From IMG/VR virus record IMGVR_UViG_3300043436_001089: a stretch of 64,000 nucleotides of DNA; one strand, written 5' to 3'. Shown piece after piece: positions 43,256-58,454 of this stretch. Under the pieces are notes generated by a model. That model saw only the letters and a program-made list of their open reading frames with translations, was not told the origin of the DNA and made no database searches. The first letter of the stretch is position 1, and every line of letters starts with the position of its first letter. Origin of the DNA: a virus (taxonomy: Duplodnaviria > Heunggongvirae > Uroviricota > Caudoviricetes). Both the position numbers and the translations under genes were made by a program.

Positions 43256-43485
43256 GTGTCAACTCCGTATACCTGTTTAATCCATTGCCTCATTGAGATA
43301 TTTTGAAACTCAACATTACTGTCACGCTTGCCACCTGGGTAAACAACAAACAGTTCGTTAGCCACATCTTTAATAATCAACTCAGCGAACTTATCAGCAT
43401 GTTCTACTCCCATCCATTTGCCGCTTGTATCAGTACCGGCATTCTTCATCATTTCTTTAATTCGTTCATTCATCAGGTGCCCCAT
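43252..43485 (-). CDS. Hypothetical small protein
   Basis: 77-aa ORF. Confidence 0.4.
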   Translation of the reverse strand: MGHLMNERIKEMMKNAGTDTSGKWMGVEHADKFAELIIKDVANELFVVYPGGKRDSNVEFQNISMRQWIKQVYGVDT

Positions 43486-44321
43486 TCGTTCTTAAACAAC
43501 GGTACTTGAAGTCTGTCACTGTAGCGCCATCCTCTGTTCATTGCCGCGATTGCTACATTCTTAGCGTTCATGCTATATAATGATTCAACCCCACCGCAAG
43601 GCATCAAGTATACGGGACCAGTAAAGCCACGCTTACGATATTCGTCAACTGCTTGTTCTGCTTCTCGTACATCATCTTCTGTAGCAACTACGAATTTCAA
43701 ATAAACAAAACCATACTGCTTATACTGAGAAATTACGTCAGGACAAATTGCTTCTTCCCACTTCTCACCGCTAATAGATAGCTTAGGACTGACTGAAAAA
43801 GTGATAGCATCTTTAGCACGATTGCGTTGCCATTCACGTATGTAGTTACCAAACTCCGGAGTAATGAGTTGTGTACCATTTGTCTCAAAGGTCATCTCTT
43901 TGAGACTTCTCATTTTCTCATGTGAAAGTAAGTCAGGATACGCTCTTTGCCATCCGAGAAGAGGTTCGCCGCCCGTAATAACAAGGTGCTCATCCATCCA
44001 ACGACCTCTAGGAAGTGTACCAACAATGCTGTCAGCAATAGAATCGGTGTCAAGCACAGGACTAAGATGTTTAAAAGCAGGGTCCCAAGATGCATAACTA
44101 TCACATCCCGTACTGACAAGTGGTAAGGATTTATAATCTGTAAAAGTTTCTGCTTTAATTGCAATTGTTTCCCTTTCTAAGCTCATTTCTCCCTTTGGCA
44201 TACCAAAGCCACCGCAAGTAAAGTTGCAACCGAATGTTCGTAAGAACACACTAGGGACTCCCATAAACTTGCCTTCACCTTGAATGCTGTAGAATAATTC
44301 TGAAATTTTAAGTTGACTCAT
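43473..44321 (-). CDS. queE: 7-carboxy-7-deazaguanine synthase QueE-like radical SAM enzyme (atypical Cys spacing)
   Basis: ELFYSIQGEGKFMGVPSVFLRTFGCN, HLVITGGEP, FETNGT and SVSPK align with E. coli QueE blocks. The cluster motif reads CNFTC and the third Cys is about 37 residues later (STGCDSY). Confidence 0.7.
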   Translation of the reverse strand: MSQLKISELFYSIQGEGKFMGVPSVFLRTFGCNFTCGGFGMPKGEMSLERETIAIKAETFTDYKSLPLVSTGCDSYASWDPAFKHLSPVLDTDSIADSIVGTLPRGRWMDEHLVITGGEPLLGWQRAYPDLLSHEKMRSLKEMTFETNGTQLITPEFGNYIREWQRNRAKDAITFSVSPKLSISGEKWEEAICPDVISQYKQYGFVYLKFVVATEDDVREAEQAVDEYRKRGFTGPVYLMPCGGVESLYSMNAKNVAIAAMNRGWRYSDRLQVPLFKNEWGT

Positions 44322-45396
44322 AATTTTTTATACTGTGTAAGTTTCCCAAGATAATTCTAGGGCTGTTGAAGATCGGATCTTGTAATAGATCCTGCAATTC
44401 TTTCTTTTCCAATTCGGGCATTTCAAAATTTGTATGAAATGCAGAGTCAGACAAGTGACCCCATTGTACTACTAAGTTGAAGTAAACGCTAGTCAAATGG
44501 CTATATTCAAGTTGCCATTTTGCAAAGTCTACTATCTCTTTGTAGTTGTTGCGCTGTACAGTGAAGTTAGTTTGGAACTGTTTTAAATTTTTAAATGACC
44601 CATTCTTTATGATTTCATTCAATGATTCTAAGTTCCTTTTCACTTTATCTAGTGATCCGTTTTTCCGTACAACTGAGTAAGTGTCATTAGTTGCCGCATC
44701 AATACTGATATTGATATGACTGATGCTATCCCACAAATGTTGCATGTCATTTAATCGAGAGTCTGTCATTAAGATACCGTTAGTTAACAATTTCAATGAT
44801 AGATTTTCATTAGGTTCTAGATTCTTAATATAGTTCCAATAGGTAGGACTAGCGAATGCATCACCGCTGCCTGTGATGTTCAACGTTAGCTTTTCACCTC
44901 GACTTAACAGATAGTCAATCAATTCTTTGACTCGATTATGCACACGTGTTATCAATGCATTTTCGTCTAATTGAAACAATATCAATTCATTTCTACAGCT
45001 AGGGCATTGTAAGTTACATGATTGGTCATAACTAAAGTTAATAACAATAGGCTGTCGTGCTTTCTCATGTTGAAGCATAGGTAAAGGAACTATGTATCCC
45101 GGTATATGCTTCCCATTAAGTATAGAGTTAATGAAAGGACAATGGTCATTACATTCAGTAAACTTACCCTTATCCATATCATTGATTAATGATACTCTGT
45201 TGAAGTTAGTTAGTATCTCTTCCGGAGTATCAGTTAACACATTGCCGAACATCTTAGGTAACCAAGAAAAACAACAGACAGATATATCACCTGAAGGGTG
45301 TATCTCAATATATTTTGATATACGGTAGCATCCATAACTAGTTAGTTTGGATTCAGGAACTATATACTTATCTGCTGATTTTATAACGTAATGCAT
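44308..45396 (-). CDS. Radical SAM enzyme with extra N-terminal Cys-rich domain
   Basis: Canonical CNLQCPSC (CX3CX2C). N-terminal Cys cluster CCFSW...CNDHCPF. 362 aa. Confidence 0.65.
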   Translation of the reverse strand: MHYVIKSADKYIVPESKLTSYGCYRISKYIEIHPSGDISVCCFSWLPKMFGNVLTDTPEEILTNFNRVSLINDMDKGKFTECNDHCPFINSILNGKHIPGYIVPLPMLQHEKARQPIVINFSYDQSCNLQCPSCRNELILFQLDENALITRVHNRVKELIDYLLSRGEKLTLNITGSGDAFASPTYWNYIKNLEPNENLSLKLLTNGILMTDSRLNDMQHLWDSISHINISIDAATNDTYSVVRKNGSLDKVKRNLESLNEIIKNGSFKNLKQFQTNFTVQRNNYKEIVDFAKWQLEYSHLTSVYFNLVVQWGHLSDSAFHTNFEMPELEKKELQDLLQDPIFNSPRIILGNLHSIKNYEST

Positions 45397-45546: not shown

Positions 45547-46101
45547 TTACGCAAACAAGTCCTCATTCCACTCACGATGACCTTCACGATAAGCCATGTT
45601 AGATTGTGTCTCACGTACTTCAACACGATAGCACCATAGACGCTTGGCTTCACCATCACCCCACATATCAGGGATGTAAACACCATTCACATACTTGTAA
45701 AGCATATCTGCTAAACTCTCGCAACCAATTCGTGGTAGAATGGTTAGTTTAGCTAACTTCTTTTCTTGTAACATTTTGAATGTTTCAAGTTCGGGATCGT
45801 CTTGTGCGACTAGTAATGTATGGTCAAACTGATCCTCAAGAATCTTTTTCAATTCTTTAAGACCACCGTAGTCAGCCGCCCAGTTACGAACGTCTAGATC
45901 GTTTGTACCGAAATAGAATTTCATACTGAAACTGTACCCGTGAATCATGTTGCAGTGACTATCTGCACGCCACTGTCGATAAGCGCACGGGAATGAATCG
46001 TGATATTCTTTTGTGCTAGTATACTTATAAGTCACTGGTCTAGTGTTTTGTAAGTTTTCTTCTATGTGACGAATTAAGTCACCTGTTGATGAGTTTGCCA
46101 T
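45547..46101 (-). CDS. queD: QueD-like 6-carboxy-tetrahydropterin synthase (PTPS family)
   Basis: CNMIHGYSF matches the CxxxHGH zinc motif region. FDHTLLV matches LDHHYLN of E. coli QueD. It is longer than the E. coli protein (184 aa). Confidence 0.65.
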   Translation of the reverse strand: MANSSTGDLIRHIEENLQNTRPVTYKYTSTKEYHDSFPCAYRQWRADSHCNMIHGYSFSMKFYFGTNDLDVRNWAADYGGLKELKKILEDQFDHTLLVAQDDPELETFKMLQEKKLAKLTILPRIGCESLADMLYKYVNGVYIPDMWGDGEAKRLWCYRVEVRETQSNMAYREGHREWNEDLFA

Positions 46102-46176
46102 TATTTTCTCCTATGTTAATTATAGCATAGGACGCAGAATTTGTATACCGGGATGAGCCCATAAGGCCGGTTATCT

Positions 46177-46974
46177 TTATTTACCAAATCCCAAAGATTT
46201 GCGAATTTTTGTTGCACTAATATTATGAGTAGCATCATCAAAAACTTCTTGTTCAATGGTATAACCCACATCACGACCATATGTAATGTTAGTGATATTT
46301 GGAACTACTTGAATTTCATATTGACCTTGATAAAGCATGTCCAAATCACGCTTGATAAAGTTCTTTACTTGGTCAATTGCAAATGGGTTAGTTCCATTCC
46401 ATCCTTGGCAGTCACGTATTTGAATGACAACTTGCCCAGTCTTAGCAATAGCACGTTCAAACAACTTACGATGTCCTTCGTGCCAGGGTTGCCAGCGACC
46501 TAACATCTGTACAGTTTCTTTTTGCCAATTAAATACGGGTCTGCGTCTATCATCTAGTATATGTGCGGCAATAAACTCACCCCACTTTTCACCGTGTTGC
46601 TCGGTGATTCTGAAATCATACTGTTCAGGTGGAATAAATGCTTTGTTGGTATCTTCGTATCGACCCTTGTCAATCGTATCTACCCACACAGTCCAATCTG
46701 CTTTGAAGTTATTACGCATTTCAACTAATGGTGCAACAAAATCACAGATAACATAATCATATTCTGTCATTGTATCTGCTAGTTGACGCATACGATGACT
46801 TTGACGAATACGACCTTCTGTGCTAAAGTCCCAGTCATTGTACTTTTTACGCACATCATCCGCGTTTAGCCAGCCTACTTTTTTCTTTTCATTTTGTAAA
46901 TACTCTAGTACATATTGTGCTAGGTAAGTTTTTCCTGCGCCCGGAAGACCCATTACTAAAATTCGATATGTCAT
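46177..46974 (-). CDS. Fusion of P-loop kinase and HxGH nucleotidyltransferase
   Basis: N-terminal Walker A VMGLPGAGKT. C-terminal WQPWHEGHRKLF (HxGH), the signature of the cytidylyl/adenylyltransferase superfamily. Confidence 0.6.
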   Translation of the reverse strand: MTYRILVMGLPGAGKTYLAQYVLEYLQNEKKKVGWLNADDVRKKYNDWDFSTEGRIRQSHRMRQLADTMTEYDYVICDFVAPLVEMRNNFKADWTVWVDTIDKGRYEDTNKAFIPPEQYDFRITEQHGEKWGEFIAAHILDDRRRPVFNWQKETVQMLGRWQPWHEGHRKLFERAIAKTGQVVIQIRDCQGWNGTNPFAIDQVKNFIKRDLDMLYQGQYEIQVVPNITNITYGRDVGYTIEQEVFDDATHNISATKIRKSLGFGK

Positions 46975-46996
46975 TTATATAACTCCATTATTATTT

Positions 46997-47716
46997 TTAA
47001 CTAATTTTTATATTTAAATTTCTTGCAATTAACTTGTTTATTCTCGAATAAGTAGTTCCACTTGAATCCATTTTTTGAGTGACCATTTCTTTTATTTCTG
47101 TATAATTTTCTGGTCTAGGAGTAAACAGTAATTCAGGAGAAATAATCTCAGTATCTTCGAGCCACACATCTAAGTCAATGGGGCCATCAAAATCATCCAT
47201 CAATTTATTACAATATAAACTACGATAGATTGCATACTCAAGATGTTCTCTATTGTATGGGATTGGGTCGTGAATATTTTTAGGTATGTCTATGATATTA
47301 TAGTAAGCCCAGTACCCCTCTTTTCCACTATTACTAGTTGTACTTCTTACCAGTTCAATATAAAAACTAGTTATTTGGTCTATTATATTACGCCGACAAA
47401 TTCTTATTACATAGCACTCGTTATTCTTAATACTGTCAGCTACCATTAATCTTTGATTATTAAGTATGTTATCCAGCGGTCCTGCCTCAAGAAGTTCAGG
47501 GTACATTAATTCATCTATATGAGTTTTTAATATGTACGGTTGTTTACTATTCATAAGATCAGATAATTCTGTTTTTTCTTTTGATGCAATATTAAAGGGT
47601 TCATTAATGAATGGGATACCTAAGTGTCTTTTGAGTTCAAGAGATAGCGCCGTAGAACCTGTTCTCGGAGCAGATAAAATAATTACTGGAAATTTTGTTA
47701 TGTTATATTTGTTCAT
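46997..47716 (-). CDS. Sulfotransferase (PAPS-dependent, Stf0/NodH-like)
   Basis: The 5'-PSB-like SAPRTGSTAL (PRSGST motif) and the 3'-PB-like RRNIIDQITS (Rx7S) are both present. Confidence 0.55.
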   Translation of the reverse strand: MNKYNITKFPVIILSAPRTGSTALSLELKRHLGIPFINEPFNIASKEKTELSDLMNSKQPYILKTHIDELMYPELLEAGPLDNILNNQRLMVADSIKNNECYVIRICRRNIIDQITSFYIELVRSTTSNSGKEGYWAYYNIIDIPKNIHDPIPYNREHLEYAIYRSLYCNKLMDDFDGPIDLDVWLEDTEIISPELLFTPRPENYTEIKEMVTQKMDSSGTTYSRINKLIARNLNIKIS

Positions 47717-47737
47717 ATATTATTCTATTTACGCTTT

Positions 47738-48040
47738 TTATCGGTATAATTCCAAAAGCATCTTATACTTATCATACGCTTCACTGATTGCCGGGTGTCT
47801 TTTACGCATCCATGCTTCGCTTCTCTGATCTTGCCACAGTAGATCATACTCATGGTCTATCCTGACCAATTGTTCAAATCCACTACGTGTAATTTCTATT
47901 TCAATAAGTTCTTCACGGTTAGTGTAGTAACCAGCAGTTTGATTGTAACCATAGTTAATAGTCTCAAAATTACGGTCACGAACTACCTGCACATGTTTGA
48001 CACTATATTTATTAATGAATGAATCGTAAAAATTACTCAT
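47738..48040 (-). CDS. Hypothetical protein
   Basis: 100-aa ORF. Confidence 0.4.
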   Translation of the reverse strand: MSNFYDSFINKYSVKHVQVVRDRNFETINYGYNQTAGYYTNREELIEIEITRSGFEQLVRIDHEYDLLWQDQRSEAWMRKRHPAISEAYDKYKMLLELYR

Positions 48041-48510
48041 TGTTGACCTCTTTTGTTGGTTTCACTATCATAGACACGTTTACGTAGGCTACTGGAGCTG
48101 AAGGAGTGATCTCTACCGTTAAAGACAATTTCGATGGATCTGAGCTTGCATTCACCTTTACCACTGAATTCCTTATCGGCATATTCGACACCAAGGATTC
48201 TGACATCCACCGGTAGTATGAGTAAGAGGTCAACGAGGTCCTGCTCTGTACTATACACAACCACTTCGTCAACGTAACGACACGCCGCCAACTGGATTTG
48301 ACGTTCCACAATGCTTTGAACAGGCTTGTTTTTAGTGTCAGGCCTATCAATTGTAGGATCACTTTGAAGTCCGCAAATAAGGTAGTCGCAATGGTTTCTT
48401 GCTTCACTGAGCATTGCGATATGTCCTGCGTGAAGCATGTCGAAGGTTGAGAATGTGATTCCAATTCGTTTGCCTTCTTGTTTAAGTTTTTTAACATGAT
48501 TAAATATCAT
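48037..48510 (-). CDS. Cytidylyl/adenylyltransferase (HldE/RfaE domain II or TagD-like)
   Basis: TFDMLHAGH (HxGH) in a 157-aa single-domain protein. Confidence 0.65.
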   Translation of the reverse strand: MIFNHVKKLKQEGKRIGITFSTFDMLHAGHIAMLSEARNHCDYLICGLQSDPTIDRPDTKNKPVQSIVERQIQLAACRYVDEVVVYSTEQDLVDLLLILPVDVRILGVEYADKEFSGKGECKLRSIEIVFNGRDHSFSSSSLRKRVYDSETNKRGQQ

Positions 48511-48847
48511 CTGGTAGTATTTCCTCTAACTCAGTTTCATCCTCAAAGTAATGAACATGATAAGTTTTACCTGCATGTTCATATACATCAGTGAAAGAAC
48601 GTTGATTGTTGGTTGACTCAATTGGTTCCAATAATCTGAACACAGTAAACAAGTGCTCACGTTCAGTACCCTCAATCTTACGTTTATCAGGTCCCATGAC
48701 TTTACGCATGAACTCTTTGAGTTTGATAGGATCACTAGCGATTCTATCAGCAGCCTCTTGAATCCAGTCAAGATTTGTTTTTGCAGTCACAGTTACGTCC
48801 TTGGTTACAGTTGCCGGTGCAATCGCTCTTCGGTAATCTACGAACAA
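48500..48847 (-). CDS. Hypothetical protein
   Basis: 115-aa ORF. Confidence 0.4.
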   Translation of the reverse strand: MFVDYRRAIAPATVTKDVTVTAKTNLDWIQEAADRIASDPIKLKEFMRKVMGPDKRKIEGTEREHLFTVFRLLEPIESTNNQRSFTDVYEHAGKTYHVHYFEDETELEEILPDDI

Positions 48848-48892
48848 CTGTTATAGCGATGACAACTACTATTAGTAGAATAATGACTGTCA

Positions 48893-49570
48893 TTACTTAC
48901 CTTTGTTTGCAATCTGCAAGAACTCTGCACGTGCCGCTGGATCAGTTTTGAACCCGCCGCCTAATCGACAAGTAACAGTGCTTGAACCTGTATCTTCTAC
49001 GCCGCGACTCTTAACGCAATAGTGTTGTGCGTCAATCATAACTGCCACGTCCTCTGTTTCAAGTATGAATTGTAGCGTATGGAAAATCTGCTCTGTGAGG
49101 CGCTCTTGAATCTGCGGGCGTTTTGAAAAATACTCAACAATACGGTTGATCTTACTGAGTCCCAAGACTTTTTGCTTAGGAACATATGCAACAGTAGCCA
49201 AGCCGTCAATAACGACAAAGTGATGTTCGCAATTACTTTGGACGTTGACGTTACGCTCAACGACCATTTCGTTGTAGTGCATTTTGTTGTCCACGGTAGT
49301 GCATTTTGGGAACGCTTCATAATCTAAACCCCAGAAGATTTCGTTGACATACATCTTAGCAACACGCTTTGGTGTGTCAATCAAACTATCGTCTGTTAAG
49401 TCAAGACCGAGCGTTTCCATAATATATGCAAAGTGAAGTTCGATTTTATCAATCTTTTCTTTACGGTCTATACTATTAGGTTTTGTAGGTGTCTCAACAC
49501 CCATTTTGACTAAGTATTCGTGTACTTTTTGACCCAACTCTGGGTCTGTTTTTGTTTTATTATAACTCAT
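48893..49570 (-). CDS. folE: GTP cyclohydrolase I (FolE)
   Basis: CEHHFVVIDGLATVAYVPK, GLSKINRIVEYFSKRPQIQERLT and HYCVKSRGV align with E. coli FolE. The start is taken at MSYNKT after Shine-Dalgarno AAGGAAGG. Confidence 0.85.
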   Translation of the reverse strand: MSYNKTKTDPELGQKVHEYLVKMGVETPTKPNSIDRKEKIDKIELHFAYIMETLGLDLTDDSLIDTPKRVAKMYVNEIFWGLDYEAFPKCTTVDNKMHYNEMVVERNVNVQSNCEHHFVVIDGLATVAYVPKQKVLGLSKINRIVEYFSKRPQIQERLTEQIFHTLQFILETEDVAVMIDAQHYCVKSRGVEDTGSSTVTCRLGGGFKTDPAARAEFLQIANKGK

Positions 49571-49636
49571 AGATAACCTTCCTTTGTGATGGTTTTGTTT
49601 TGACATTGTGCTACCGTTGTGTAGCACAAGTATTTA

Positions 49637-49930
49637 TCATTCTTCGTCAACGATACAAAGAATATCTTCTTCTTTCATGACGATGAAATCTTGATTACCA
49701 ACTGTAATCTTTTGAGGACCTGATTGATTGTAGATTACAACGTCTCCCTCTTTTACTTCAGGTGTAGCGAAGGTTCCGTCCTCTAGTCTGCGACCTTTGC
49801 CTACCTTGAATACAGTGCCACGGGGCAATTTCTCTTGAGCCGAATCAGGGATATAAAACCCCGATTCAGTTCTAGTCTTTGCTTCCTGCGGTTTGACCAA
49901 GATGCGGTCATTTGCTGGAGTCAATGCCAT
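49637..49930 (-). CDS. groES: Co-chaperonin GroES (Cpn10)
   Basis: The 97-aa pattern ...DRILVKPQEAKTRTESGFYIPDSAQEKLPRGTVFKVGKGRRLEDG... matches the GroES mobile loop and beta-barrel. Confidence 0.8.
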   Translation of the reverse strand: MALTPANDRILVKPQEAKTRTESGFYIPDSAQEKLPRGTVFKVGKGRRLEDGTFATPEVKEGDVVIYNQSGPQKITVGNQDFIVMKEEDILCIVDEE

Positions 49931-49932
49931 GA

Positions 49933-50127
49933 TTAAGCCTTAGCTTTTGCTTCTGCACGTGCGGCTTTTTCTGCTGTAATTTCATTACGGCGAGCCTTAA
50001 CTGCTTTAGCTAGTTCTGCTAGTGCTTTGCGGGCACGTGTGCCTGCTGCCGCATTACCTGCAACAAACTTAGTATTTTCTGCGTTGTATGCAGCCAGTTG
50101 TGTTTCGATATCATTGTGTGCGCTCAT
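49933..50127 (-). CDS. Small basic Ala/Lys-rich protein (histone-like tail)
   Basis: The start is trimmed to MSAHNDIE after Shine-Dalgarno AAGGAG. The C-terminus is AEKAARAEAKAKA. Confidence 0.4.
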   Translation of the reverse strand: MSAHNDIETQLAAYNAENTKFVAGNAAAGTRARKALAELAKAVKARRNEITAEKAARAEAKAKA

Positions 50128-50137
50128 TAGTTTCTCC

Positions 50138-51325
50138 TTAAAATTTTGCTTCACGTGTGTGTTTGCGATAGTCTGTTGACATACGCAAATATTGTTCACC
50201 CTTGCCTTCAAGGATGTCACAAATTCTGTCTATAGTCCCGTCATTGCGTTGTGCGATAGCACCTTGATTATAATGAGGATCTCTTAGTAATGGGTGCAGT
50301 TTGTTAATAGCATCGTCAATAGACCAAGGCACGTAAAGTCTAGATGCATCATTTGCAAAAGTTTCTGGGAAACTCCTATAAGCAGGATACAAGACATTGC
50401 AACCAAGAGCATCCGCTTCGGATACGGTGTTGCTAACCCAGTCTTGTAAAGCGCAATTAAAGACAACACGACTATTGTTGACAATATTATAATAATCATT
50501 TTTACTCAAGTCCTCATGCAACGTAAGTAATCCGCGACTTACTAAGTCACGTGTGCGATCCATGTAACTATCGTTATTAGATTTCAGTTTGCTACCAGAG
50601 CAAACACAGAACTCTACGTTGTTACCATAACGCTCATGCCATTCTTCAATTAGATCCATATAGAAGTCAGGCTGCTTCTCTTGATCCCAACGTGCTGAAA
50701 AGACAACACGCATTGCCCGTTCTTCAAACGGTTTAATTTGATGCTGTACACGCTCACGTACTTCTTCCATGCCAAATGCTAGTCCACTGATATTGTAGAT
50801 CGGGACTTCCCAACCTGCAATCTTCATGTGCATGACCATTTCTTCATTAGTTGCGAGGATCGCACCACCACTCTGGCTAACAGCTTCGCAGACCATCTTC
50901 TCATAGGAACCCATCCACTTGGCCATCCCCCAAACGTGAACAAAGTCATCAGGGTCGATTGACTGCGCAAGACAGCGCACATATATCTTAGGGCGATGTG
51001 CTTCACTAACTTGATTAAGAATATAAGGCAAGCTCTCAAAGCCCGGCTGAAACATATCTTCAAAATAGATAACATCTTCATTATTGATTTTACCTTGTTT
51101 CATCCACATAACAAGATTCATCATCTGACTCATAGCAAAATAGCTACGACCATGTGCATCTAGTACTTGACCGGTTACAATAGATTCTTCATTGTCTAGT
51201 GTTTCACCGGGTACGATTACATACTGAATCTTGCGTTTCTCAAATGCACGTGTGTTCCACTGCTGTAGTTGCAATGTGTACCGTGCTTTATAGGGTTCTA
51301 GTCCCATGTAAATAAGTCTACGCAT
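50138..51325 (-). CDS. Putative glycosyltransferase (GT-B-like)
   Basis: 395 aa. ARWDQEKQPDFYMDLIEEW resembles the GT4 EX7E region. Weak evidence. Confidence 0.45.
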   Translation of the reverse strand: MRRLIYMGLEPYKARYTLQLQQWNTRAFEKRKIQYVIVPGETLDNEESIVTGQVLDAHGRSYFAMSQMMNLVMWMKQGKINNEDVIYFEDMFQPGFESLPYILNQVSEAHRPKIYVRCLAQSIDPDDFVHVWGMAKWMGSYEKMVCEAVSQSGGAILATNEEMVMHMKIAGWEVPIYNISGLAFGMEEVRERVQHQIKPFEERAMRVVFSARWDQEKQPDFYMDLIEEWHERYGNNVEFCVCSGSKLKSNNDSYMDRTRDLVSRGLLTLHEDLSKNDYYNIVNNSRVVFNCALQDWVSNTVSEADALGCNVLYPAYRSFPETFANDASRLYVPWSIDDAINKLHPLLRDPHYNQGAIAQRNDGTIDRICDILEGKGEQYLRMSTDYRKHTREAKF

Positions 51326-52085
51326 TATTTTTTCTTTCTATATCTTCTTCGTTGCATTCTTCACCATATTGAATCTCTACGATTCTACAAGGTGTCTTAT
51401 ATGGATTACTTAGTCTATGCCAATCACCTTGTGGAATTTGTACTTGACTGAATGTTGTTAGTTCCATTGAAGGCAATGCATAGCCACTAGGCATAGTCAT
51501 GTCAAGGATACAATTACCTTCAGTCACGTGCCAAAATTCGTGTCGCTTGAAATGTCGTTGCATACTCAGACTTTGACCGGGATTTACTGTTAATTCTTTT
51601 ACCTTGCATCCTTGCACATCATGTAGTATACGATAGTATCCCCATTGGCGCAACGTTTTTGGTTGTTTCCATTCACGTAGAATCCAACTGCTCGAATTCT
51701 TTTTATCATTTCCACCGACACCAAATACAAATTCTATGTTGTCGTCTTCAACATCCATTTCTGGAATGTTATCATGTGTTCTATCTCCGCCGTTAGCAAA
51801 GATAATAGTTGCTTCTGGGAATTTCTCCCTCACTGCGTAGATAGCATACTTTGCAGTATTGTCTACATCGTCAAAATTTATTACCCAATCTACTGGATCT
51901 AAATTTCCTACAATGGTTAGTCTTTCATCAAACGGCATAAAAGGTTGGCCCTTTTTACGAGCCAACCAATCATCACTGTTGAGACCAACTACTAAGTTGT
52001 CGCCCAATTCTTTAGCGGCTTTGAGATAACTGACATGTCCAGAATGTACAGGGTCAAAGCCTCCAGTGACTAATACAATTTTCAT
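51318..52085 (-). CDS. Heptose-1-phosphate adenylyltransferase-like (HldE domain II) fused to C-terminal cupin
   Basis: VTGGFDPVHSGHVSYLKAAKELGDNLVVGLNSDDW...VDWVI aligns closely with E. coli HldE domain II. The C-terminus has the cupin motif QRHFKRHEFWHVTEG. Confidence 0.65.
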   Translation of the reverse strand: MKIVLVTGGFDPVHSGHVSYLKAAKELGDNLVVGLNSDDWLARKKGQPFMPFDERLTIVGNLDPVDWVINFDDVDNTAKYAIYAVREKFPEATIIFANGGDRTHDNIPEMDVEDDNIEFVFGVGGNDKKNSSSWILREWKQPKTLRQWGYYRILHDVQGCKVKELTVNPGQSLSMQRHFKRHEFWHVTEGNCILDMTMPSGYALPSMELTTFSQVQIPQGDWHRLSNPYKTPCRIVEIQYGEECNEEDIERKNNA

Positions 52086-52288
52086 CGAATAATTGCTTCT
52101 GCCCACATGTCTTTGGGTGACTTGTTAGTCATCCATTTCTCAAACTGACGAAACGCAAAGCTTCGGCGGTCATAGAGAGTTGACTCGTCAAACTTGTATC
52201 CATAGTCCTGACAGAATTCAAGATATTTTTCCAAGTCTTCAAAAATTTGACGGACACGTGGATTGGGTTGAAAAGAAGGTTTTGCCAT
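52082..52288 (-). CDS. Hypothetical small protein
   Basis: 68-aa ORF. Confidence 0.35.
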   Translation of the reverse strand: MAKPSFQPNPRVRQIFEDLEKYLEFCQDYGYKFDESTLYDRRSFAFRQFEKWMTNKSPKDMWAEAIIR

Positions 52289-52301
52289 TTTAATAATTCC
52301 T

Positions 52302-52757
52302 TTAAATAGCGAGTTGTTGATAAGGTTGAGTTAAGTTATAATGAATCGTGGCACCGTTCTCACCGTCTTCGCTTACGGTAATAATGATTTCACGTTCGGG
52401 ATAGCGAGTAGCGATTTGCTCATAGAGGTCATCACTAATCATTTCACACGACTTATAATTCAATTCAAGTGTTCCGCCTTTATAGAGATTCTCTAACCAG
52501 CGTTTAAATTGAATGAACTCAATATCCCTGTCGTTGTGAAATACTTCAATCGCCACATTAAAGTGAAAAATGTGACGATGTGGGGTTCCTAGAAAGCTAA
52601 CATCATATTCGTCACCTGTCGCTAGGTTAAAATCTGATGCTGCCGCGGGGTACTTATGAATACCTTCTTTCTGAAAGGTCACAAAAATCATACGTTTCGC
52701 TTTATCTTTAATGCGATTACGTGCTTCTACCATTGCATGGTGTCGTTGTTCAATCAT
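52302..52757 (-). CDS. Hypothetical protein, possible T-fold (PTPS/QueD-related)
   Basis: LGTPHRHIFHF loosely resembles the PTPS HxH zinc site context. Weak evidence. Confidence 0.3.
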   Translation of the reverse strand: MIEQRHHAMVEARNRIKDKAKRMIFVTFQKEGIHKYPAAASDFNLATGDEYDVSFLGTPHRHIFHFNVAIEVFHNDRDIEFIQFKRWLENLYKGGTLELNYKSCEMISDDLYEQIATRYPEREIIITVSEDGENGATIHYNLTQPYQQLAI

Positions 52758-52966
52758 CTGTCATCCCCAAAGTCTACTGTATCATGGTCGTGATCCCATT
52801 GAGCACGATTCATTTGTCTAAGTTCAGTCATGTATTTTACACTAGTAGTACGCAGTTCTGCAAGTTTTTTGGGATCTGCGTTTCCCGATTTCTCTAATTG
52901 AAATATCTGATTTTCTACTATTCTGTGTGATTCTTCTAATGTTTTAATACGTTGAGTGTATGGCAT
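52754..52966 (-). CDS. Hypothetical small coiled-coil protein
   Basis: 70-aa ORF. Confidence 0.35.
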   Translation of the reverse strand: MPYTQRIKTLEESHRIVENQIFQLEKSGNADPKKLAELRTTSVKYMTELRQMNRAQWDHDHDTVDFGDDR

Positions 52967-52967
52967 A

Positions 52968-54548
52968 TTATTCTCCTAAAACTTCATTGATTGCGTCATC
53001 ACTATCCTCAATGATTTCATCAATCTCTGGCTCACTACTATTTACTTCAAATAATTGGTCAAACATAGTCATAGCATTTTCAGTTTTCTTACCGCTGATA
53101 CCTTGACTACCTGATTGAAACTGCTTCCAGTAACTGTTATGATAGTTGATAACATCTAATGCTTCTTGTTTAGTCTTCTTACTAAAGATTTCATCAACAA
53201 TATTTTTAAAAAAGCTATCACCGTCTAATTTATGAACTAACATCTTAGGCACAACACCCTGCGCATATTGACGATTAGCTTCTTGAACAGCATTCATATG
53301 CATCCAAACATTATGACTCTGAATCAATGTATAGCTCAATGTATCCCAACTAGTTTTAGTTTCTTTACCATGTGCACCTAAGAAGCCTTGACCCCTATAG
53401 CATACGTCCTTAACGACTAGTTTATCAGTTACTGGACTATCTGTAAAGAGTTTATGGACGCCGTCATTAATAATAGCATCACTAAACTTACGTTGGTCAC
53501 CACCGGGCATACCTGTTTGAGGTACACCGTACTTCTTATCATCTAGAGTTTTTTCCATACTATACGCCCACTTTTTATTGTGTTCAATACTAGTGTTGAA
53601 ATAACCTAGACCTTTAGCCGCACTATAGAACGGGCTTGCACAGTCAAATGTAATTTGAAGCTTTGGATTATGATACTTGCGGATAGCTTTCTGAATGTCA
53701 GTGAACAATACTGCATACTCTAAAATACTTGTACCTAAACAGTGAATCAAGTCATGCTTGCCTTCTTGTAATAGACCATCATGGATGATATCAACCATAC
53801 GTGTTAGCATTAAGTGAACGTCAATTTTGTTCTGTCCTCCAAACGCCCATCCGTTGAAGTGATTATCCGGATAGATATTTGGATCGCAATACTTTTTCAT
53901 TTCAAGATACCAATCATCAGATTGTGTATGATTGCGACCTTGCAATACGTTTAAGAACTTGCATTTACCCGAACGATGCTTTATAAAGTATTCGTTGTTA
54001 ATATGTGTAGCAGTGATAGCTTCTTCAATAGTACTAATACCGTGAGCACTCTTGCCTGTCTTAGGATCCTTGATATGAAAGGTAGTCAAGGATTGTGATG
54101 GGATATCAAGACACATACCATAGTCCATGTATGTGTCCATCCACGTGAGAACTTCTTTACGTTTCTTCATAGCACGTGGGCAGTTAGGATCTTTCCAATC
54201 AGCAGGCCACTGACATTTCAAAATCTGAAATCCACCTGAGTCACCCAACATGAAAGTACCTTCTTCACGTTCACGTATGATACTCTCACTAGAATCATTT
54301 TTCATTGGATCTAAGTTAGCATGACCAGCAGAGTACAAACCCCACTTATAAGTATACACACCTTCTTTACTATTTAAGAAATTTAATTTTTCAACATCAC
54401 CATTAAACCCTGCAGGAATACGTGATTGGTCAAAATAGTTTTCACCTTTACGCTGTTTACCTAAGCCGGCAATATAGAACGAACTTACTGCTGGTAAAAA
54501 CAGTGCCCATTCAGGGTCTTGTTTTGCTGATAGATTATCTTGTTGCAT
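52968..54548 (-). CDS. dpdA: DpdA-like DNA-guanine transglycosylase (TGT superfamily)
   Basis: FMLGDSGGFQILK matches the catalytic DSGG[FY]Q motif of tRNA-guanine transglycosylases. It lies next to folE, queD and queE, as in phage 7-deazaguanine DNA modification clusters. 526 aa. Confidence 0.65.
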   Translation of the reverse strand: MQQDNLSAKQDPEWALFLPAVSSFYIAGLGKQRKGENYFDQSRIPAGFNGDVEKLNFLNSKEGVYTYKWGLYSAGHANLDPMKNDSSESIIREREEGTFMLGDSGGFQILKCQWPADWKDPNCPRAMKKRKEVLTWMDTYMDYGMCLDIPSQSLTTFHIKDPKTGKSAHGISTIEEAITATHINNEYFIKHRSGKCKFLNVLQGRNHTQSDDWYLEMKKYCDPNIYPDNHFNGWAFGGQNKIDVHLMLTRMVDIIHDGLLQEGKHDLIHCLGTSILEYAVLFTDIQKAIRKYHNPKLQITFDCASPFYSAAKGLGYFNTSIEHNKKWAYSMEKTLDDKKYGVPQTGMPGGDQRKFSDAIINDGVHKLFTDSPVTDKLVVKDVCYRGQGFLGAHGKETKTSWDTLSYTLIQSHNVWMHMNAVQEANRQYAQGVVPKMLVHKLDGDSFFKNIVDEIFSKKTKQEALDVINYHNSYWKQFQSGSQGISGKKTENAMTMFDQLFEVNSSEPEIDEIIEDSDDAINEVLGE

Positions 54549-54928
54549 TAAACTTTTACTTCTTCTTGTATTAGTGCTTTAACCATTTCAATCTTGTTGA
54601 TATAGTTATCCATTGTAGTTCGCATCTCAACCACGATATCGTTGATAGTAGGATGCTTTTCGCACAAGGCTTGTAATTCTTGTTCTTCAAACATCTTCTT
54701 TTCTGCCCACTTGAGAATGCTAATAGCATTTGATGATAGATTAACGGTAGCCTGACCACCACCTATAGTCATCCAATGACTACCATCATAGACCTTCATC
54801 TGTTGAGTACTAGGATCATAACTCATTGCACCTACCATAGGCTGATTACTAGACATATTGATATAAGGCTGAGCACCTTTGTTACTAATAACATTTAGGT
54901 ACTCACCACCAATTACGTAGTCAATCAT
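54548..54928 (-). CDS. Hypothetical protein
   Basis: 126-aa ORF. Confidence 0.4.
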   Translation of the reverse strand: MIDYVIGGEYLNVISNKGAQPYINMSSNQPMVGAMSYDPSTQQMKVYDGSHWMTIGGGQATVNLSSNAISILKWAEKKMFEEQELQALCEKHPTINDIVVEMRTTMDNYINKIEMVKALIQEEVKV

Positions 54929-55736: not shown

Positions 55737-58454
55737 TTAACCGAATGTGAATAAATCATCAAATGTTGAATTCGTGTCAGTGTTTGAACGTATGTCCCAA
55801 TCTAGCACACCCAACAAGTTATCAATCTTTTCATCAACTAGAGTCTTTTCCATTTCTTTGTCATCAAATGGTAGCTCAACAAACCACTGTGGTAGTCTGA
55901 GTTCATCAGTAGGGTATGCGATTGAAGTAAATCCTAAGGGATTAGGTTTCAACTTACACACAATAACCTTCATACCATCAACAATCTTTTGACTATATTG
56001 ATCTCCGTTAACTCTGCGCAAGTAGTTATAGTTAAGTGCGGCTCTTACGTGACCGGGCATGTTTGCTTTGCCCGTCGAACTCTTTTCTTCTTTCTCACCG
56101 TAACTTGTTAATTTGTTAACACCTTTAGGTGAGCCTTTAGTCCAACTATCTTGTGCTGCCAAGACACGTTTAAAAGTTTTGACAACTTCAATAACTTCGT
56201 CACGACCCTTACCTTGCTGAATAACCATTTGTAGTACGTTCATTAAAAACTCTTGTACATACTTAGGTGTATCCGCACGTTTCAAGTCAAGACCCATCGC
56301 TTTGATATCGCCCATCTTACCATCTTTATCTTTACGTTTGCCTTCTTTATCAAAGATATTGATAGCATAACGCTTTTTAGTAATAAAGATACTACGATCA
56401 CCGATCAATTCACGACCTGCTTTGATAATCTCACCGTTCTTACGAGGTGCATGAAATGCTTTCTCCATGAACTGGGGGAATGACTCGTTAGCCTGATCTG
56501 CTATACTATCGTACAATCCAATGCACAACTCTTTGTCCCACTTCAGTTCACCTTTAGCAACCTGATCTTTGAGAATAGGCCATGCACTGAAATAACAAGA
56601 GTCAGTGTCGCCATAAACAATAGCTTCACCTTCGTGCGTATACTCGCCCGCAACACATTCGTTAATCTGACTCATCATGTGCTTAACAATCTGACGACCA
56701 CTTAGTGTAACTGATTGACCGATACGCTTGTCATAGAAACGACAGTGTTCATTCAGCAATGCACCATACGCAGAGTTCAACAAAATCTTACGAACTAGTT
56801 GACGCTTATCCCAATACTCTTTGTCAGTGTCAGTAGTTGCCTCTTTTAATTTCTTTTGCATTGTTTTACGATCACTGTACCAACGTGTGAGTAGACCAGG
56901 AATCACGCCCTCTTTCTCATACGTAAAGATTGTACCGTTCGCACTTAGCATATAAGGCTTGTGACTATCAAAGATCATCTTCCAGATTTCTGCGGCAGAC
57001 ATTTCTACACTGCGACCATCTTCAAAGTCAACAGTAAGAATAGTACCACGTTCTTGACTCATGATAGCTGTGTACTCTAATGCACCAAACAAACCTTCCC
57101 ATAAAATAGCACCTTCAACTGCATCATCGCCATCTTTGTAGCGTTTCTTTTCCATTGCAAGTTTGAGGCCCTTTTCATGCATGTACTTTTCAGTTAATGT
57201 TTGTCTGACTTGGGCAACGATTGTTTCTGGTGCCATGTTGAGGGCACGAATAACCGAGGGATAGAGCGAGTTAATATCGACTGCTCCGACCCATTCATGC
57301 ATGCCTCTTTTCGGAGTAGCAACGAAGGCACCTGCTGCCTGCTGGACATCTTCTTCATTTTCAACCTTTCGTTTTTTATCAGGAACCACTAATCCACGTT
57401 CATGAGATTCATTCATGATAGCCATTTCAATCATAGCTACTGAACCCATAACTGTCGGCAATAGCACAGTATTTTCATGTGCTAGTTGATTTGCCAATTC
57501 TAAAAACTTAAGCTTGTTGTGAATTTTCACTAACAACAATGTATCTTGTCTATTGTATTCAATGAACTTTTTAAAGTCTTGATTATACAATTGGTCAAGT
57601 GTACCTTCATACTGAGTCTTGTTCTCACCTACTTCCATCTCACCGATAGAATCTAGTTTGTAACTATGACGGCTTTCATAGTTGTACTTTTTATACAACT
57701 GTAAATAGTCCATATGAATACGACCCACCAAGTCATATGTCATTTCAACCTTACCGAATCGTTCATATTCTCTAGGCTTAGGTAGTTGACCCATCAAGCA
57801 AAACTTGCGTGTGTCATCTTTACTCATTACTCTAGTAACACGATTGACCATGTAGGGAATATCATAGCCCTCTGAGTTCCAGCCTGTCATCACATCAGCA
57901 TCTTCAATCAACTGAAAGAACACATCAAACATGTCCTTCTCATTTTTGAATAGCATTGTATTTTCAAACTGACTTACAATCTCATTTGCTGTATCATCTG
58001 TCATGTGCTTAGGTGCAATAACAAGAGTGACACACTGATCTAACCAATCCAAGTAACAACTAATCGCAGTTACAGGATTGAATGGATCGCTAGTAGGACT
58101 AAAACCTTTCTCAGGATCAAAGTCTACTTCAATGTCAAAGAAGCAGGTATGAAGCTTAGGTGCGTCAATGCCAAGATAGTTTTCACTAAGACACCTGAAC
58201 ACAACGTTAACATCACTCTCAAATAATTTCTTACCTGAGTGAATCCTACGTTCCTTTTCAAATTCAGTGCGCTTGCGAGTGCTGAATCTTGATACAGAGT
58301 CATTGTAAATACTACGATGTTTACCCTTAGGGTCAGCGTAGTAAAGAACGTAGTTCGTAGGAAACTCTTTGTATTCACGCTTGCCCTCAGGTGATCGTTC
58401 TACTACGTAGATACGATCTTCATCCCTGCTGTGGATAGCGTCAACGTAGCTCAA
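55737..58454 (-). CDS. DNA polymerase, family B (T4 gp43-like)
   Basis: Exo I motif FFDIEVDF. Pol motifs DINSLYPS, KILLNSAYG and YGDTDS. 905 aa. Confidence 0.9.
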   Translation of the reverse strand: MSYVDAIHSRDEDRIYVVERSPEGKREYKEFPTNYVLYYADPKGKHRSIYNDSVSRFSTRKRTEFEKERRIHSGKKLFESDVNVVFRCLSENYLGIDAPKLHTCFFDIEVDFDPEKGFSPTSDPFNPVTAISCYLDWLDQCVTLVIAPKHMTDDTANEIVSQFENTMLFKNEKDMFDVFFQLIEDADVMTGWNSEGYDIPYMVNRVTRVMSKDDTRKFCLMGQLPKPREYERFGKVEMTYDLVGRIHMDYLQLYKKYNYESRHSYKLDSIGEMEVGENKTQYEGTLDQLYNQDFKKFIEYNRQDTLLLVKIHNKLKFLELANQLAHENTVLLPTVMGSVAMIEMAIMNESHERGLVVPDKKRKVENEEDVQQAAGAFVATPKRGMHEWVGAVDINSLYPSVIRALNMAPETIVAQVRQTLTEKYMHEKGLKLAMEKKRYKDGDDAVEGAILWEGLFGALEYTAIMSQERGTILTVDFEDGRSVEMSAAEIWKMIFDSHKPYMLSANGTIFTYEKEGVIPGLLTRWYSDRKTMQKKLKEATTDTDKEYWDKRQLVRKILLNSAYGALLNEHCRFYDKRIGQSVTLSGRQIVKHMMSQINECVAGEYTHEGEAIVYGDTDSCYFSAWPILKDQVAKGELKWDKELCIGLYDSIADQANESFPQFMEKAFHAPRKNGEIIKAGRELIGDRSIFITKKRYAINIFDKEGKRKDKDGKMGDIKAMGLDLKRADTPKYVQEFLMNVLQMVIQQGKGRDEVIEVVKTFKRVLAAQDSWTKGSPKGVNKLTSYGEKEEKSSTGKANMPGHVRAALNYNYLRRVNGDQYSQKIVDGMKVIVCKLKPNPLGFTSIAYPTDELRLPQWFVELPFDDKEMEKTLVDEKIDNLLGVLDWDIRSNTDTNSTFDDLFTFG

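Follow-up and report, generated by a model that had tools for sequence, protein, structure and literature searches.

A predicted manno-sugar isomerase-nucleotidyltransferase fusion and two further HxGH-domain proteins beside a deazaguanine module in a jumbo-phage lineage

We analysed three proteins encoded in a 64,000-nucleotide stretch of Caudoviricetes DNA (IMG/VR record IMGVR_UViG_3300043436_001089; the whole stretch is called the window here), each of which carries the HxGH motif of nucleotidyltransferases: NT-A (48037-48510), NT-B (51318-52085) and Kin-NT (46177-46974, with Kin as its N-terminal and NT-C as its C-terminal half). NT-B is predicted to be a manno-type sugar-phosphate isomerase joined to an HldC-type nucleotidyltransferase. 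Such an isomerase-HldC fusion is a new form of a known kind of enzyme, and no description of it was found in the literature searched. Our overall explanation, in which we have somewhat better than even confidence, is that NT-B would activate a manno-sugar, that NT-A would provide a second donor, and that NT-C would belong to a separate adenylyltransferase-kinase. Domain identities, clade membership, kept motifs, gene order and the presence or absence of genes were observed directly; from homology and gene context we infer the substrates, the nucleotide specificity, the acceptor and a 3'-kinase role, similar to that in the synthesis of 3'-phosphoadenosine 5'-phosphosulfate (PAPS).

Three HxGH domains of two kinds

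The domains concerned are the following.

48037-48510, minus strand: NT-A, 157 amino acids (aa), stand-alone HxGH nucleotidyltransferase of the clade of glycerol-phosphate cytidylyltransferase (GCT), ethanolamine-phosphate cytidylyltransferase (ECT) and HldC
51660-52085, minus strand: N-terminal domain of NT-B, nucleotidyltransferase of the type of HldC and HldE domain II (HldE-II), with HSGH, PVDWVI and NSSSWILR
51318-51659, minus strand: cupin domain of NT-B, type-II phosphomannose-isomerase (PMI) type, with SMQRHFKRHEFW ... GDWHRLSN ... EIQYGEECNEEDIER
46540-46974, minus strand: Kin, P-loop kinase of the adenosine 5'-phosphosulfate (APS) kinase family, N-terminal half of Kin-NT (265 aa), with GLPGAGKT, LNADDVR, DFSTEGR and VAP
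46177-46539, minus strand: NT-C, truncated HxGH domain resembling nicotinamide mononucleotide adenylyltransferase (NMNAT), C-terminal half of Kin-NT

All three open reading frames (ORFs) of an earlier note on this DNA exist at the coordinates given there. They lie on the minus strand, each has both nucleotidyltransferase motifs, and their profile matches, given below, are far too strong for chance. We built a neighbour-joining tree (120 columns, 200 bootstraps) with HldE, CoaD, NadD, NadR, RibF and PanC of E. coli K-12 and with TagD, TarD, ECT, HldC and NadM from PDB alignments as references, several of which are partial. A group of NT-A, NT-B, HldE-II, HldC, TagD, TarD and ECT was split, with 100% bootstrap, from CoaD, NadD, NadR, RibF, NadM and NT-C with its phage relatives. 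The first clade was poorly resolved inside; NT-A stood with ECT domain 2 at 68%, and NT-B was unplaced. We thus assign NT-A and NT-B to the sugar- or alcohol-phosphate nucleotidyltransferases, and not to phosphopantetheine adenylyltransferase (PPAT) or NMNAT. NT-C grouped with Francisella NadM at 97% bootstrap.

The earlier note had taken the three proteins for paralogous enzymes forming nucleoside diphosphate (NDP) sugars, a reading that clustering with NMN adenylyltransferases would contradict. The tree bears out a placement with sugar-activating enzymes for NT-A and NT-B and contradicts it for NT-C, and the pairwise scores also speak against three paralogues. NT-A matched E. coli HldE-II with 31.7% identity over 139 aa (BLAST, E=9e-20) and NT-B matched it with 46% over 74 aa (E=8e-23), while NT-A and NT-B shared 30.6% over 72 aa (E=1.5e-8); NT-C had no significant match to either (E about 0.3-0.5). 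Since both NT-A and NT-B match E. coli HldE-II better than they match each other, we do not regard them as recent paralogues; NT-C lies outside their clade. The idea of three paralogues was therefore rejected.

One could also suppose that NT-A and NT-B are themselves cofactor enzymes (PPAT, NMNAT or FMN adenylyltransferase), as weak secondary matches to archaeal PPAT (37-46 bits) and, for NT-A, to pantothenate synthetase might suggest. This is already largely refuted, and we regard it as very improbable: the matches to HldE-II, HldC, TagD and ECT are far stronger, the tree separates both proteins from CoaD, NadD, NadR and RibF with full bootstrap support, and a PMI cupin fusion with recurrent adjacency to glycosyltransferases and sugar-nucleotide enzymes does not fit it.

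The isomerase-nucleotidyltransferase fusion and the stand-alone enzyme

The start of NT-B at 52085 is correct: it is an ATG that overlaps the stop of the upstream ORF (ATGA) and gives a protein of 255 aa, with database homologues of 250-258 aa. The N-terminal domain (HSGH at 52046-52035) matched CTP_transf_like (E=6.8e-14) and rfaE_dom_II (E=9.5e-23, 80.6 bits), and its best PDB match was Burkholderia HldC (5x9q, 6e-13). The likeness to the ADP-heptose synthase adenylyltransferase domain that the earlier note had seen in the blocks GHVSYL...VDWV is thus real. The cupin, for which the same note had suggested a sugar isomerase or epimerase, proved to be a type-II PMI domain with intact signature blocks. 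It matched Pfam MannoseP_isomer (E=6.9e-21; 75 bits, cut-off 23.6), Cupin_2 (1.1e-6) and the C-terminus of GMP_PMI (TIGR01479, 7.9e-19), and aligned with the C-terminal PMI domain of E. coli CpsB at 34% over 106 aa (E=1.4e-15). Across 49 family members of NT-B the blocks SxQxHxxRxExW, GxWHxLxN and EIQxGxxxxEEDIxR are kept.

The closest known arrangement is that of ManC/CpsB/AlgA (TIGR01479), which likewise unite isomerase and nucleotidyltransferase for a manno-sugar in one chain and end in a PF01050 cupin with the same signature blocks. Their N-terminal part, however, has the PF00483 fold, whereas NT-B has the unrelated PF01467 (HldC) domain and no PF00483, and is 255 aa long as against about 480. 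Consistently, NT-B scored 67.8 bits with TIGR01479, from its C-terminal part only, and did not reach the whole-protein cut-off of 372.95 bits.

The genes that could use an activated sugar, together with a small ORF coupled to NT-B, are listed here.

50138-51325, minus strand: GT395, glycosyltransferase of GT-B fold (GT4-like), overlapping the 3' end of NT-B by 8 nt
41283-42647, minus strand: GT454, GT4-type glycosyltransferase, with GT4/GT1 Pfam matches (Glycos_transf_1 2.5e-6, 27.6 vs 26.4 bits; Glyco_transf_4; Glyco_trans_4_4)
40456-41286, minus strand: SDR, short (276-aa) GalE-like NDP-sugar epimerase (Pfam Epimerase 5.6e-32)
52082-52288, minus strand: s68, small conserved ORF coupled to NT-B by the ATGA overlap

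The epimerase and the two glycosyltransferases of the earlier note are therefore real by Pfam, and GT395 by structure as well. The sequence of GT395 matched Glyco_trans_1_2 and Glycos_transf_1 weakly; its AlphaFold2 model (predicted template-modelling score, pTM, 0.80) retrieved MshA (3e-10), BshA, PimA, WaaG, sucrose-phosphate synthase and T4 alpha-glucosyltransferase (1y8z, 1.2e-7) in a Foldseek search. SDR scored 158 bits with TIGR01179 galE (cut-off 262) and 58.6 bits with heptose_epim, and matched the nucleotide-sugar epimerases of PHROG 540 (8.7e-44). The small conserved ORFs of the region (s68, s70, s115, s100, s78 and others) had no Pfam or PHROG assignment.

For gene context we compared 120 non-redundant related loci, seen over ±10 kb of each contig; 51 loci were picked for their likeness to NT-B and 80 for their likeness to the DpdA-like protein of the window, which biases the frequencies given here. 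GT395 was present in 75 of 76 of them, and GT454 is syntenic with the SDR gene. In three phage contexts a glycosyltransferase of a different family directly follows the fusion. In the window this is the GT-B/GT4-like GT395, the next gene after NT-B; in L038, a phage context unrelated to this one, a GT2 enzyme and a full-length GalE-like SDR epimerase come next; and in T4-like loci (L041-L043, also L154 and L221) it lies with a GT8 gene, the next gene in L043, L154 and L221, before several paralogous proteins with no assigned function. The latter, four to five proteins of 260-370 aa after GT8 (L043 10756-15926; also L154 and L221), have no Pfam match and share a FYYIDTGY-type motif; they may form an undescribed transferase family.

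The fusion also has 362 bacterial relatives among GTDB species representatives, mostly of SAR86, at about 50% identity, and one of them lies on a complete chromosome. Their commonest neighbour is a UDP-glucose/GDP-mannose dehydrogenase (19 loci), a Wzz-like protein occurs in 10, and the other neighbours are housekeeping genes. Two loci from metagenome-assembled genomes (MAGs), L154 (Haliscomenobacter, 148 kb) and L221 (Neomarinimicrobiota, 335 kb), were not counted as bacterial; both carry the L043-type cluster, L154 also has a T4-type UvsX-like recombinase, and they are probably mis-binned phage contigs. In the complete SAR86 genome CP097968.1 (L165, 6867-12984) the fusion stands between metK and ahcY, directly before cysD and cysN/C, and about 11 SAR86 genomes show the metK-fusion-ahcY arrangement. 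A link of NT-B to PAPS, as the adjacency to cysD and cysNC might have implied, was dropped, since it occurs in only 2 of 80 bacterial loci.

Because glycosyltransferases follow the fusion in several contexts and polysaccharide genes adjoin it in bacteria, the context, which is the strongest evidence on function, supports a role of NT-B in sugar-nucleotide synthesis. We propose that the cupin would convert a ketose phosphate (fructose-6-phosphate or sedoheptulose-7-phosphate) to the manno-aldose phosphate, that the 1-phosphate would be formed by a host mutase or by a kinase and a phosphatase, and that the HldC-type domain would then make NDP-mannose or NDP-heptose. NT-B would thereby follow the isomerase-pyrophosphorylase logic of ManC/AlgA, with the usual nucleotidyltransferase fold swapped for that of HldC. 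Its product would be used by GT395, encoded directly downstream, and perhaps by GT454 after epimerisation by SDR.

NT-A, whose ORF overlaps both small neighbouring ORFs in a manner indicative of translational coupling, was kept in all 53 loci having the FolE and QueD anchors and is a core gene of the lineage. It bears HAGH at 48432-48421, CRYVDEVV, and FSSSSLR near the C-terminus, and matched CTP_transf_like (E=4.7e-13), NCBIfam rfaE_dom_II (E=2e-22, 79.5 bits) and PHROG 7878 (3.5e-30). Another ORF of 154 aa lies inside it in a different frame (48033-48497); it is almost certainly no gene and was treated as spurious. The substrate of NT-A may be a sugar-1-phosphate or an alcohol phosphate. In our proposal it would activate a second phosphate ester, either a sugar-1-phosphate or an alcohol phosphate such as glycerol-3-phosphate, to an NDP donor, probably a CDP donor.

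NT-A could instead be strictly a CTP:alcohol-phosphate cytidylyltransferase, making CDP-glycerol, CDP-ethanolamine or CDP-choline for a phospho-alcohol decoration, which we consider possible and not probable. Its CRYVDEVV resembles the blocks of ECT (ACRYVSEVV) and TagD (IRYVDEVI) and not that of HldE/HldC (ECVDWVV); indeed, the (E/D)xVDWVV block common to E. coli HldE-II and Burkholderia HldC reads DPVDWVI in NT-B. The block RDHSFSSSSLR aligns with TagD and ECT, and the set of HxGH, RYVDEV and RTEGISTT-type motifs that marks GCT, ECT and choline-phosphate cytidylyltransferase (TagD TIGR01518; PDB 1coz, 3elb), the last in the form R...(I/F)S(S/T)(S/T), is present in NT-A only. Human ECT was the top PDB match (2e-19), with TagD (3e-11) and TarD behind it, and the tree put NT-A with ECT domain 2. 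Yet tree support inside the clade is weak, the rfaE_dom_II score exceeds that of TagD (53.5 bits, with 46.7 for NT-B and a TIGR01518 cut-off of 165.4), the BLAST match to HldE-II extends over the full length, and among the scanned ORFs of the window none was recognised as a phospho-alcohol transferase of the TagF, LicD or EptA type.

Several observations weigh against the proposal of two sugar-type donors. Among those window ORFs that were scanned with Pfam, to which all negatives for pathway enzymes refer, there was no mutase, HAD phosphatase, SIS isomerase or sugar kinase; host enzymes would therefore be required, and the pathway would be incomplete alone. HldE-II and HldC share with NT-A and NT-B the HxGH/ISxTxxR fold family, but the scanned ORFs include no ribokinase-type HldA, GmhA SIS isomerase or GmhB HAD phosphatase, NT-A has RYVDEV for VDWV, and NT-B is fused to a cupin. 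Neither protein reaches any NCBIfam equivalog cut-off (about 80 bits vs 181.5 for TIGR02199), so that the substrates named here are candidates. Acinetobacter and Vibrio phages carry solitary homologues of NT-A with 60-68% identity and have no annotated sugar genes beside them; around those in Ab1-TPeters and phiKT1024 the genes are hypothetical, and none nearby is annotated as a glycosyltransferase. Finally, NT-B is cleanly absent from 21 of the 76 loci; these 21 keep GT395, and s68 there adjoins it directly, at -51 to +150 nt. One locus (L047) has NT-B and no GT395. Because of this pattern the two are not obligate partners, and NT-B is a supply-side accessory to GT395.

If NT-B and its cupin are indeed a manno-sugar isomerase-nucleotidyltransferase, they represent an independently evolved third coupling of these activities, beside ManC/AlgA and GmhA with HldE. 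The fusion is common to the very abundant aquatic SAR86 and to several phage lineages, and it may supply a precursor of lipopolysaccharide (LPS) or capsule in streamlined bacteria.

The kinase fusion and the sulfotransferase-like genes

Kin-NT is an uncharacterised two-domain enzyme, with a PAPS-like, NAD-like or other 3'-phospho-adenylyl compound as candidate products. Relatives, some of them split, number more than 2,000, and Kin-NT was present in 28 of 53 related loci. Kin matched Pfam APS_kinase with 43.5 bits (cut-off 21.1), and its family profile retrieved APS kinases as all of the top 26 or so PDB matches, down to 1.6e-15, with the motif blocks aligned to 2yvu. Like CysC it has Walker A, L(D/N)xDxxR, FSxExR and (I/V)xP blocks; it stayed below the equivalog TIGR00455 (32 bits vs 138.7).

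NT-C contains GRWQPWHEGH (HEGH at 46482-46471), NPFAID, YGRDVGY and ISATKIR. Its family profile matched the NMNAT MJ0541 (2.3e-13) and NadM (4e-11) in the PDB, and hhalign gave a probability of 99% to MJ0541, with deletions of NMNAT residues ~77-92 and ~99-107. With 26 bits vs 181.2 it was below TIGR01527. No ATP sulfurylase was among the PDB matches of the profile at E<=1. We had considered NT-C as a miniature ATP sulfurylase on account of its invariant GRDxGY, and rejected this: hhalign gave 1% against residues 191-390 of yeast ATP sulfurylase, and the GY aligned with ERGY of NMNAT. A convergent function similar to that of ATP sulfurylase is possible. Modelling Kin-NT with AlphaFold on a shallow alignment (82-100% identity) gave a poor structure (predicted local distance difference score, pLDDT, 49), which was not used for fold search.

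Two genes of the window resemble sulfotransferases.

46997-47716, minus strand: ST239, sulfotransferase-like (PRTGST ... RRNIIDQITS), directly upstream of Kin-NT
62536-63165, minus strand: ST209, second sulfotransferase-like ORF (GAPGSKWSS, IKSH, VHRDNDSCLGWW)

These assignments are sub-threshold matches combined with plausible 5'-phosphosulfate-binding (5'-PSB) and 3'-phosphate-binding (3'-PB) motifs: Sulfotransfer_3 gave 8e-4 for ST239 and 1.3e-4 for ST209, both below cut-off, and the ST239 family profile matched only CurM-ST and Stf0 in the PDB, at the two PAPS-binding motifs and with E about 1-2. Kin-NT and ST239 are both absent from a 99%-identical contig (L001), so they were gained or lost together as a variable cassette. 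The lineage conserves ST209, which stands upstream of the polymerase; at one gene's distance from it, L047, L069 and L004 carry a kinase-only paralogue of Kin.

Tentatively, and with less than even confidence, we read Kin-NT as an enzyme of PAPS- or CoA-type logic: the NMNAT-derived domain would form an adenylylated compound, and Kin would then phosphorylate the 3'-OH of its adenosine. In the window the enzyme would probably serve the adjacent sulfotransferase-like protein. The order of kinase and adenylyltransferase is that of the animal PAPS synthase, Kin-NT has a sulfotransferase-like gene as its neighbour, and a metagenomic protein of three loci (P0462, L065-L067) joins an NT-C-type domain to a canonical APS kinase (233.6 bits vs cut-off 138.7), which suggests that the product of NT-C is a substrate of APS kinase. 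On a 5.6-kb contig P0462 adjoins an MFS transporter and a 2-oxoglutarate (2OG)-Fe(II) oxygenase. Against this reading stands first the partner of Kin, which is NMNAT-like, has no homology to ATP sulfurylase and differs from that of PAPS synthase (HxxH, GRDHAG), while Kin itself scores 32-40 bits against equivalog cut-offs of 127-139. ST239 is moreover rare (4 genomes, with ST239-like genes in only 5 of 53 loci), Kin-NT of Casjensviridae phages is paired with a NADAR gene and not with a sulfotransferase, and one protein (P0484) joins Kin to a PF00483 sugar-1-phosphate nucleotidyltransferase.

The pairing with NADAR genes favours a function related to NAD+ instead. As in NadR, Kin would convert nicotinamide riboside to NMN, or would phosphorylate NAD, and NT-C would make NAD+, for replenishment or counter-defence. 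NT-C is an NMNAT homologue by the hhalign result, with the GRFQPFHxGH, NPF(T/S) and ISxTxIR motifs of archaeal/NadM NMN adenylyltransferase (PDB 1f9a, 2qjt) and of NadR; Kin-NT overlaps a NADAR-domain gene with MazG near in phages of the Sano, Salvo and Bacata type; and its abundance, at 82-100% identity over more than 120 clusters, would be expected of a general-purpose function. The NMNAT region ~77-107 (MJ0541 numbering), which lies between strand 3 and the ERGY block, contributes to the nicotinamide pocket, and it is here that NT-C, with about 118 residues vs 168 and an invariant GRxxGY, has lost its two segments, including the NSIW stretch. The Kin profile, furthermore, follows APS kinases over 85 residues and matches nicotinamide riboside kinase at the P-loop only, the partner and the domain order differ from those of NadR (APS-kinase-type, reversed), and P0462 pairs NT-C with a canonical APS kinase. 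We consider this explanation unlikely.

It is still less likely that Kin-NT is a non-orthologous analogue of HldE/AfhE, with Kin phosphorylating a sugar and NT-C making the NDP-sugar, so that all three HxGH domains would activate sugars. The order of kinase and HxGH nucleotidyltransferase is indeed that of HldE, split Kin and NT-C genes lie directly beside the NT-B/cupin and GT8 cluster in L041-L043, and P0484 has the sugar-1-phosphate partner mentioned above. Kin, however, keeps the substrate-binding blocks of APS kinases and not those of sugar kinases, NT-C clusters with NMNAT outside the HldC/TagD clade, Casjensviridae carry Kin-NT with no glycosyltransferase near, and barely more than half of the related loci (28/53) have it.

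A small membrane protein of the DUF2061 family is encoded at 42629-42832, and paralogues with 29-35% identity directly follow Kin-NT in L021, L028, L044 and L049, which hints at a functional link of DUF2061 with the APS-kinase-like fusion. A literature search on DUF2061 found nothing bearing on these genes, nor did the 'moraphage' paper (PMC12619734).

The deazaguanine module and the acceptor of the sugars

The three proteins lie in what appears to be a deazaguanine DNA-modification module.

52968-54548, minus strand: divergent protein resembling tRNA-guanine transglycosylase (TGT) and DpdA, 526 aa (DSGGFQ, LQG, GWAFGG, FDCASP)
52302-52757, minus strand: p151, resembling DpdL, a proposed CDG decarboxylase, with LGTPHRH (QueD CxxxHGH to LxxxHRH; PHROG 17812 2.5e-37)
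48893-49627, minus strand: FolE, GTP cyclohydrolase I (Pfam GTP_cyclohydroI 1.3e-60)
45547-46101, minus strand: QueD-like 6-carboxytetrahydropterin synthase (Pfam PTPS 1.4e-16)
43473-44321, minus strand: QueE-like 7-carboxy-7-deazaguanine synthase (33% over 257 aa to an annotated PA5oct coding sequence)

The TGT/DpdA-like protein had no Pfam match, and a PDB sequence search gave noise only. A local hhalign to E. coli Tgt lined up all catalytic motifs with weak statistics (E=0.003, probability 10%), DSGGFQ being identical to residues 89-94 of Tgt. Its homologues occur in Pseudomonas jumbo phages of the PA5oct type, beside an annotated QueE, and in Sinorhizobium phage Phosso, and it may represent an undescribed DpdA subfamily. 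The QueE-like protein had no Pfam match at E<=0.001, and no QueC-family match was found in the window. Phages with FolE, QueD and QueE, no QueC, and the LxxxHRH signature that marks the change from QueD to DpdL have 7-deazaguanine in their DNA (Cui et al. 2023, PMC10516641). The same setting was found here, with the likeness of p151 to DpdL of Cellulophaga phage phiST judged by motif description, and the divergent TGT-like enzyme also agrees with the DpdA3/DpdL pathway of that phage (PMC10516641). Unlike there, genes for glycosyltransferases, an epimerase and nucleotidyltransferases stand between those of the module, and no sequence match could be detected between the TGT-like protein and the phages listed in that work. 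PA5oct itself has a DpdA-like, DpdL-like (53% identical to p151) and QueE set beside its polymerase and no sugar genes near, which suggests that PA5oct DNA carries 7-deazaguanine.

A PP-loop ATPase (60286-60879; ATP_bind_3, E=5.8e-35) and a divergently transcribed radical SAM protein of 495 aa (58807-60294) are encoded just upstream of the polymerase. The PP-loop gene is gone in L047 along with the deazaguanine genes, and some DpdA-containing loci also have none; the ATPase could perform a QueC-like carboxylate-activating step. A further radical SAM/SPASM protein (362 aa, 44308-45396), encoded between QueE and QueD, is rare: of the first 51 related loci, 4 had it.

Gene order across the 120 loci is highly conserved: DNA polymerase, clamp, DpdA-like, p151, s68, (NT-B), GT395, H1-like, FolE, NT-A, (Kin-NT), QueD, QueE, GT454, SDR. 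The locus L047, on a 364-kb contig, keeps s68, NT-B, H1-like, GroES, NT-A and a kinase-only gene, and has no DpdA-like protein, p151, GT395, FolE, QueD, QueE, GT454, SDR or PP-loop gene. The nucleotidyltransferases are thus independent of the deazaguanine pathway, and the glycosyltransferases co-vary with it in this one case. NT-B, Kin-NT and the deazaguanine genes can be gained and lost independently, and a DNA target of the sugars is therefore plausible but unproven. Phage DNA would nonetheless be the leading candidate acceptor, by analogy with the phage heptosylation pathway described below and by the co-location of the sugar genes with the deazaguanine module. The earlier note had placed more than one activated sugar in a DNA-modification neighbourhood. 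The neighbourhood is borne out by the DpdA-like, DpdL-signature, FolE, QueD and QueE genes; that more than one sugar is activated for DNA is not supported, as NT-B is absent from the 21 loci and L047 keeps NT-A and NT-B apart from the deazaguanine genes and GT395.

Two studies describe comparable systems in phages. A cluster of HAD/APH kinase, cytidylyltransferase and GT-B enzyme makes DNA with heptosyl-5-hydroxymethylcytosine (heptosyl-5hmC; Pyle et al., bioRxiv 10.1101/2023.12.21.572611), and an arabinose pathway runs through isomerase, kinase, phosphatase and nucleotidyltransferase steps (PMC13326640). The validated DNA arabinosyltransferases of the latter have MshA, BshA, PimA and sucrose-phosphate synthase as structural neighbours (PMC13326640), as GT395 does. 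With 'contig 53' (heptosyl-5hmC) and AfhE/AfhF (arabinosyl-5-hydroxycytosine, arabinosyl-5hoC) the window shares a cytidylyltransferase-like enzyme by a GT-B gene, the isomerase/kinase/phosphatase/nucleotidyltransferase scheme and these glycosyltransferase neighbours. It differs in that its isomerase is a cupin fused to the nucleotidyltransferase and its base pathway is that of 7-deazaguanine, whereas in those systems an MT/TET pair or a ThyA homologue supplies a hydroxylated pyrimidine as acceptor. Two points count against DNA as the target: no hydroxyl-bearing acceptor base is predicted, with no ThyA homologue or TET enzyme in the window, and 7-deazaguanine, which the DpdL pathway is predicted to yield, offers no obvious place for a sugar.

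Less probably, though as a serious alternative, the sugar nucleotides of NT-A and NT-B might go to host envelope glycans (LPS, capsule) or virion proteins, their location being a matter of shared early-gene synteny. SAR86 and further bacteria widely carry the fusion on their chromosomes, often bordering polysaccharide islands (ugd, wzz), and among cultured phages the nearest relatives of the NT-B N-terminal domain belong to cyanomyoviruses, with annotations as LPS- or teichoic-type enzymes. NT-B can occur apart from the deazaguanine genes and they apart from NT-B, as L047 and the 21 loci lacking NT-B indicate, PA5oct has its set apart from sugar genes, and a hydroxylated-base pathway is absent from the scanned ORFs. 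What makes us doubt this destination is that GT395, GT454 and SDR are missing from L047 with four separate deazaguanine gene blocks, suggesting that the transferases are tied to that pathway; that GT395 has the structural neighbours of validated DNA arabinosyltransferases and also matches T4 alpha-glucosyltransferase; and that the sugar genes are translationally coupled within the replication-gene operon.

The joint loss in L047 led us to a more specific idea, namely that GT395, GT454 and SDR glycosylate a 7-deazaguanine-derived base in phage DNA, for example by attaching a sugar to a 7-substituted 7-deazaguanine through a C- or ester linkage, with NT-A and NT-B making unusual NDP-sugar donors and, in some genomes including that of the window, sulfation by ST239 and ST209 with a PAPS-like donor from Kin-NT. 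For such a sulfated glycan Kin-NT would be a new NMNAT-derived route to an adenylyl-sulfate-type compound. We consider this a speculative and rather improbable scheme. DNA glycosylations in the cited literature are all on pyrimidines, and the glycosyltransferases interleaved with the DpdA-like/DpdL pathway in hundreds of freshwater jumbo-phage contigs would be candidates for purine-linked glycosylation.

The window is gene-dense, with nearly all genes on the minus strand and a GC content of about 0.39. Its further replication and repair genes include the following.

55737-58454: family-B DNA polymerase (a clamp-like protein is also encoded in the window)

There are also a DNA ligase, an RNaseH-like exonuclease, UvdE and dCMP deaminase. 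When 46000-54600 was compared with GenBank phages by megablast there was no match, hence no annotated close relative. The polymerase shares 44-49% identity with its counterparts in the jumbo phages Phosso, Atu_ph07 and RaK2; metagenomic contigs of up to 174 kb carry proteins identical or nearly identical to those of the window, and contigs of 330-524 kb carry relatives. Because of this polymerase likeness and these large contigs, we assign the source to an abundant, uncultured, mostly freshwater jumbo-phage lineage.

The window also encodes its own ClpP, ClpX, DnaK (Hsp70, E=6e-260) and a GroES-like co-chaperonin (9534-10124, 14198-15397, 20096-21940 and 49637-49930, respectively), an unusually full set for protein quality control. 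A GP88-family protein (498 aa, E=3.6e-23; 38974-40470, plus strand) is the sole large plus-strand gene of the region, and its gene converges on the SDR gene with a 15-nt overlap at the SDR 3' end.

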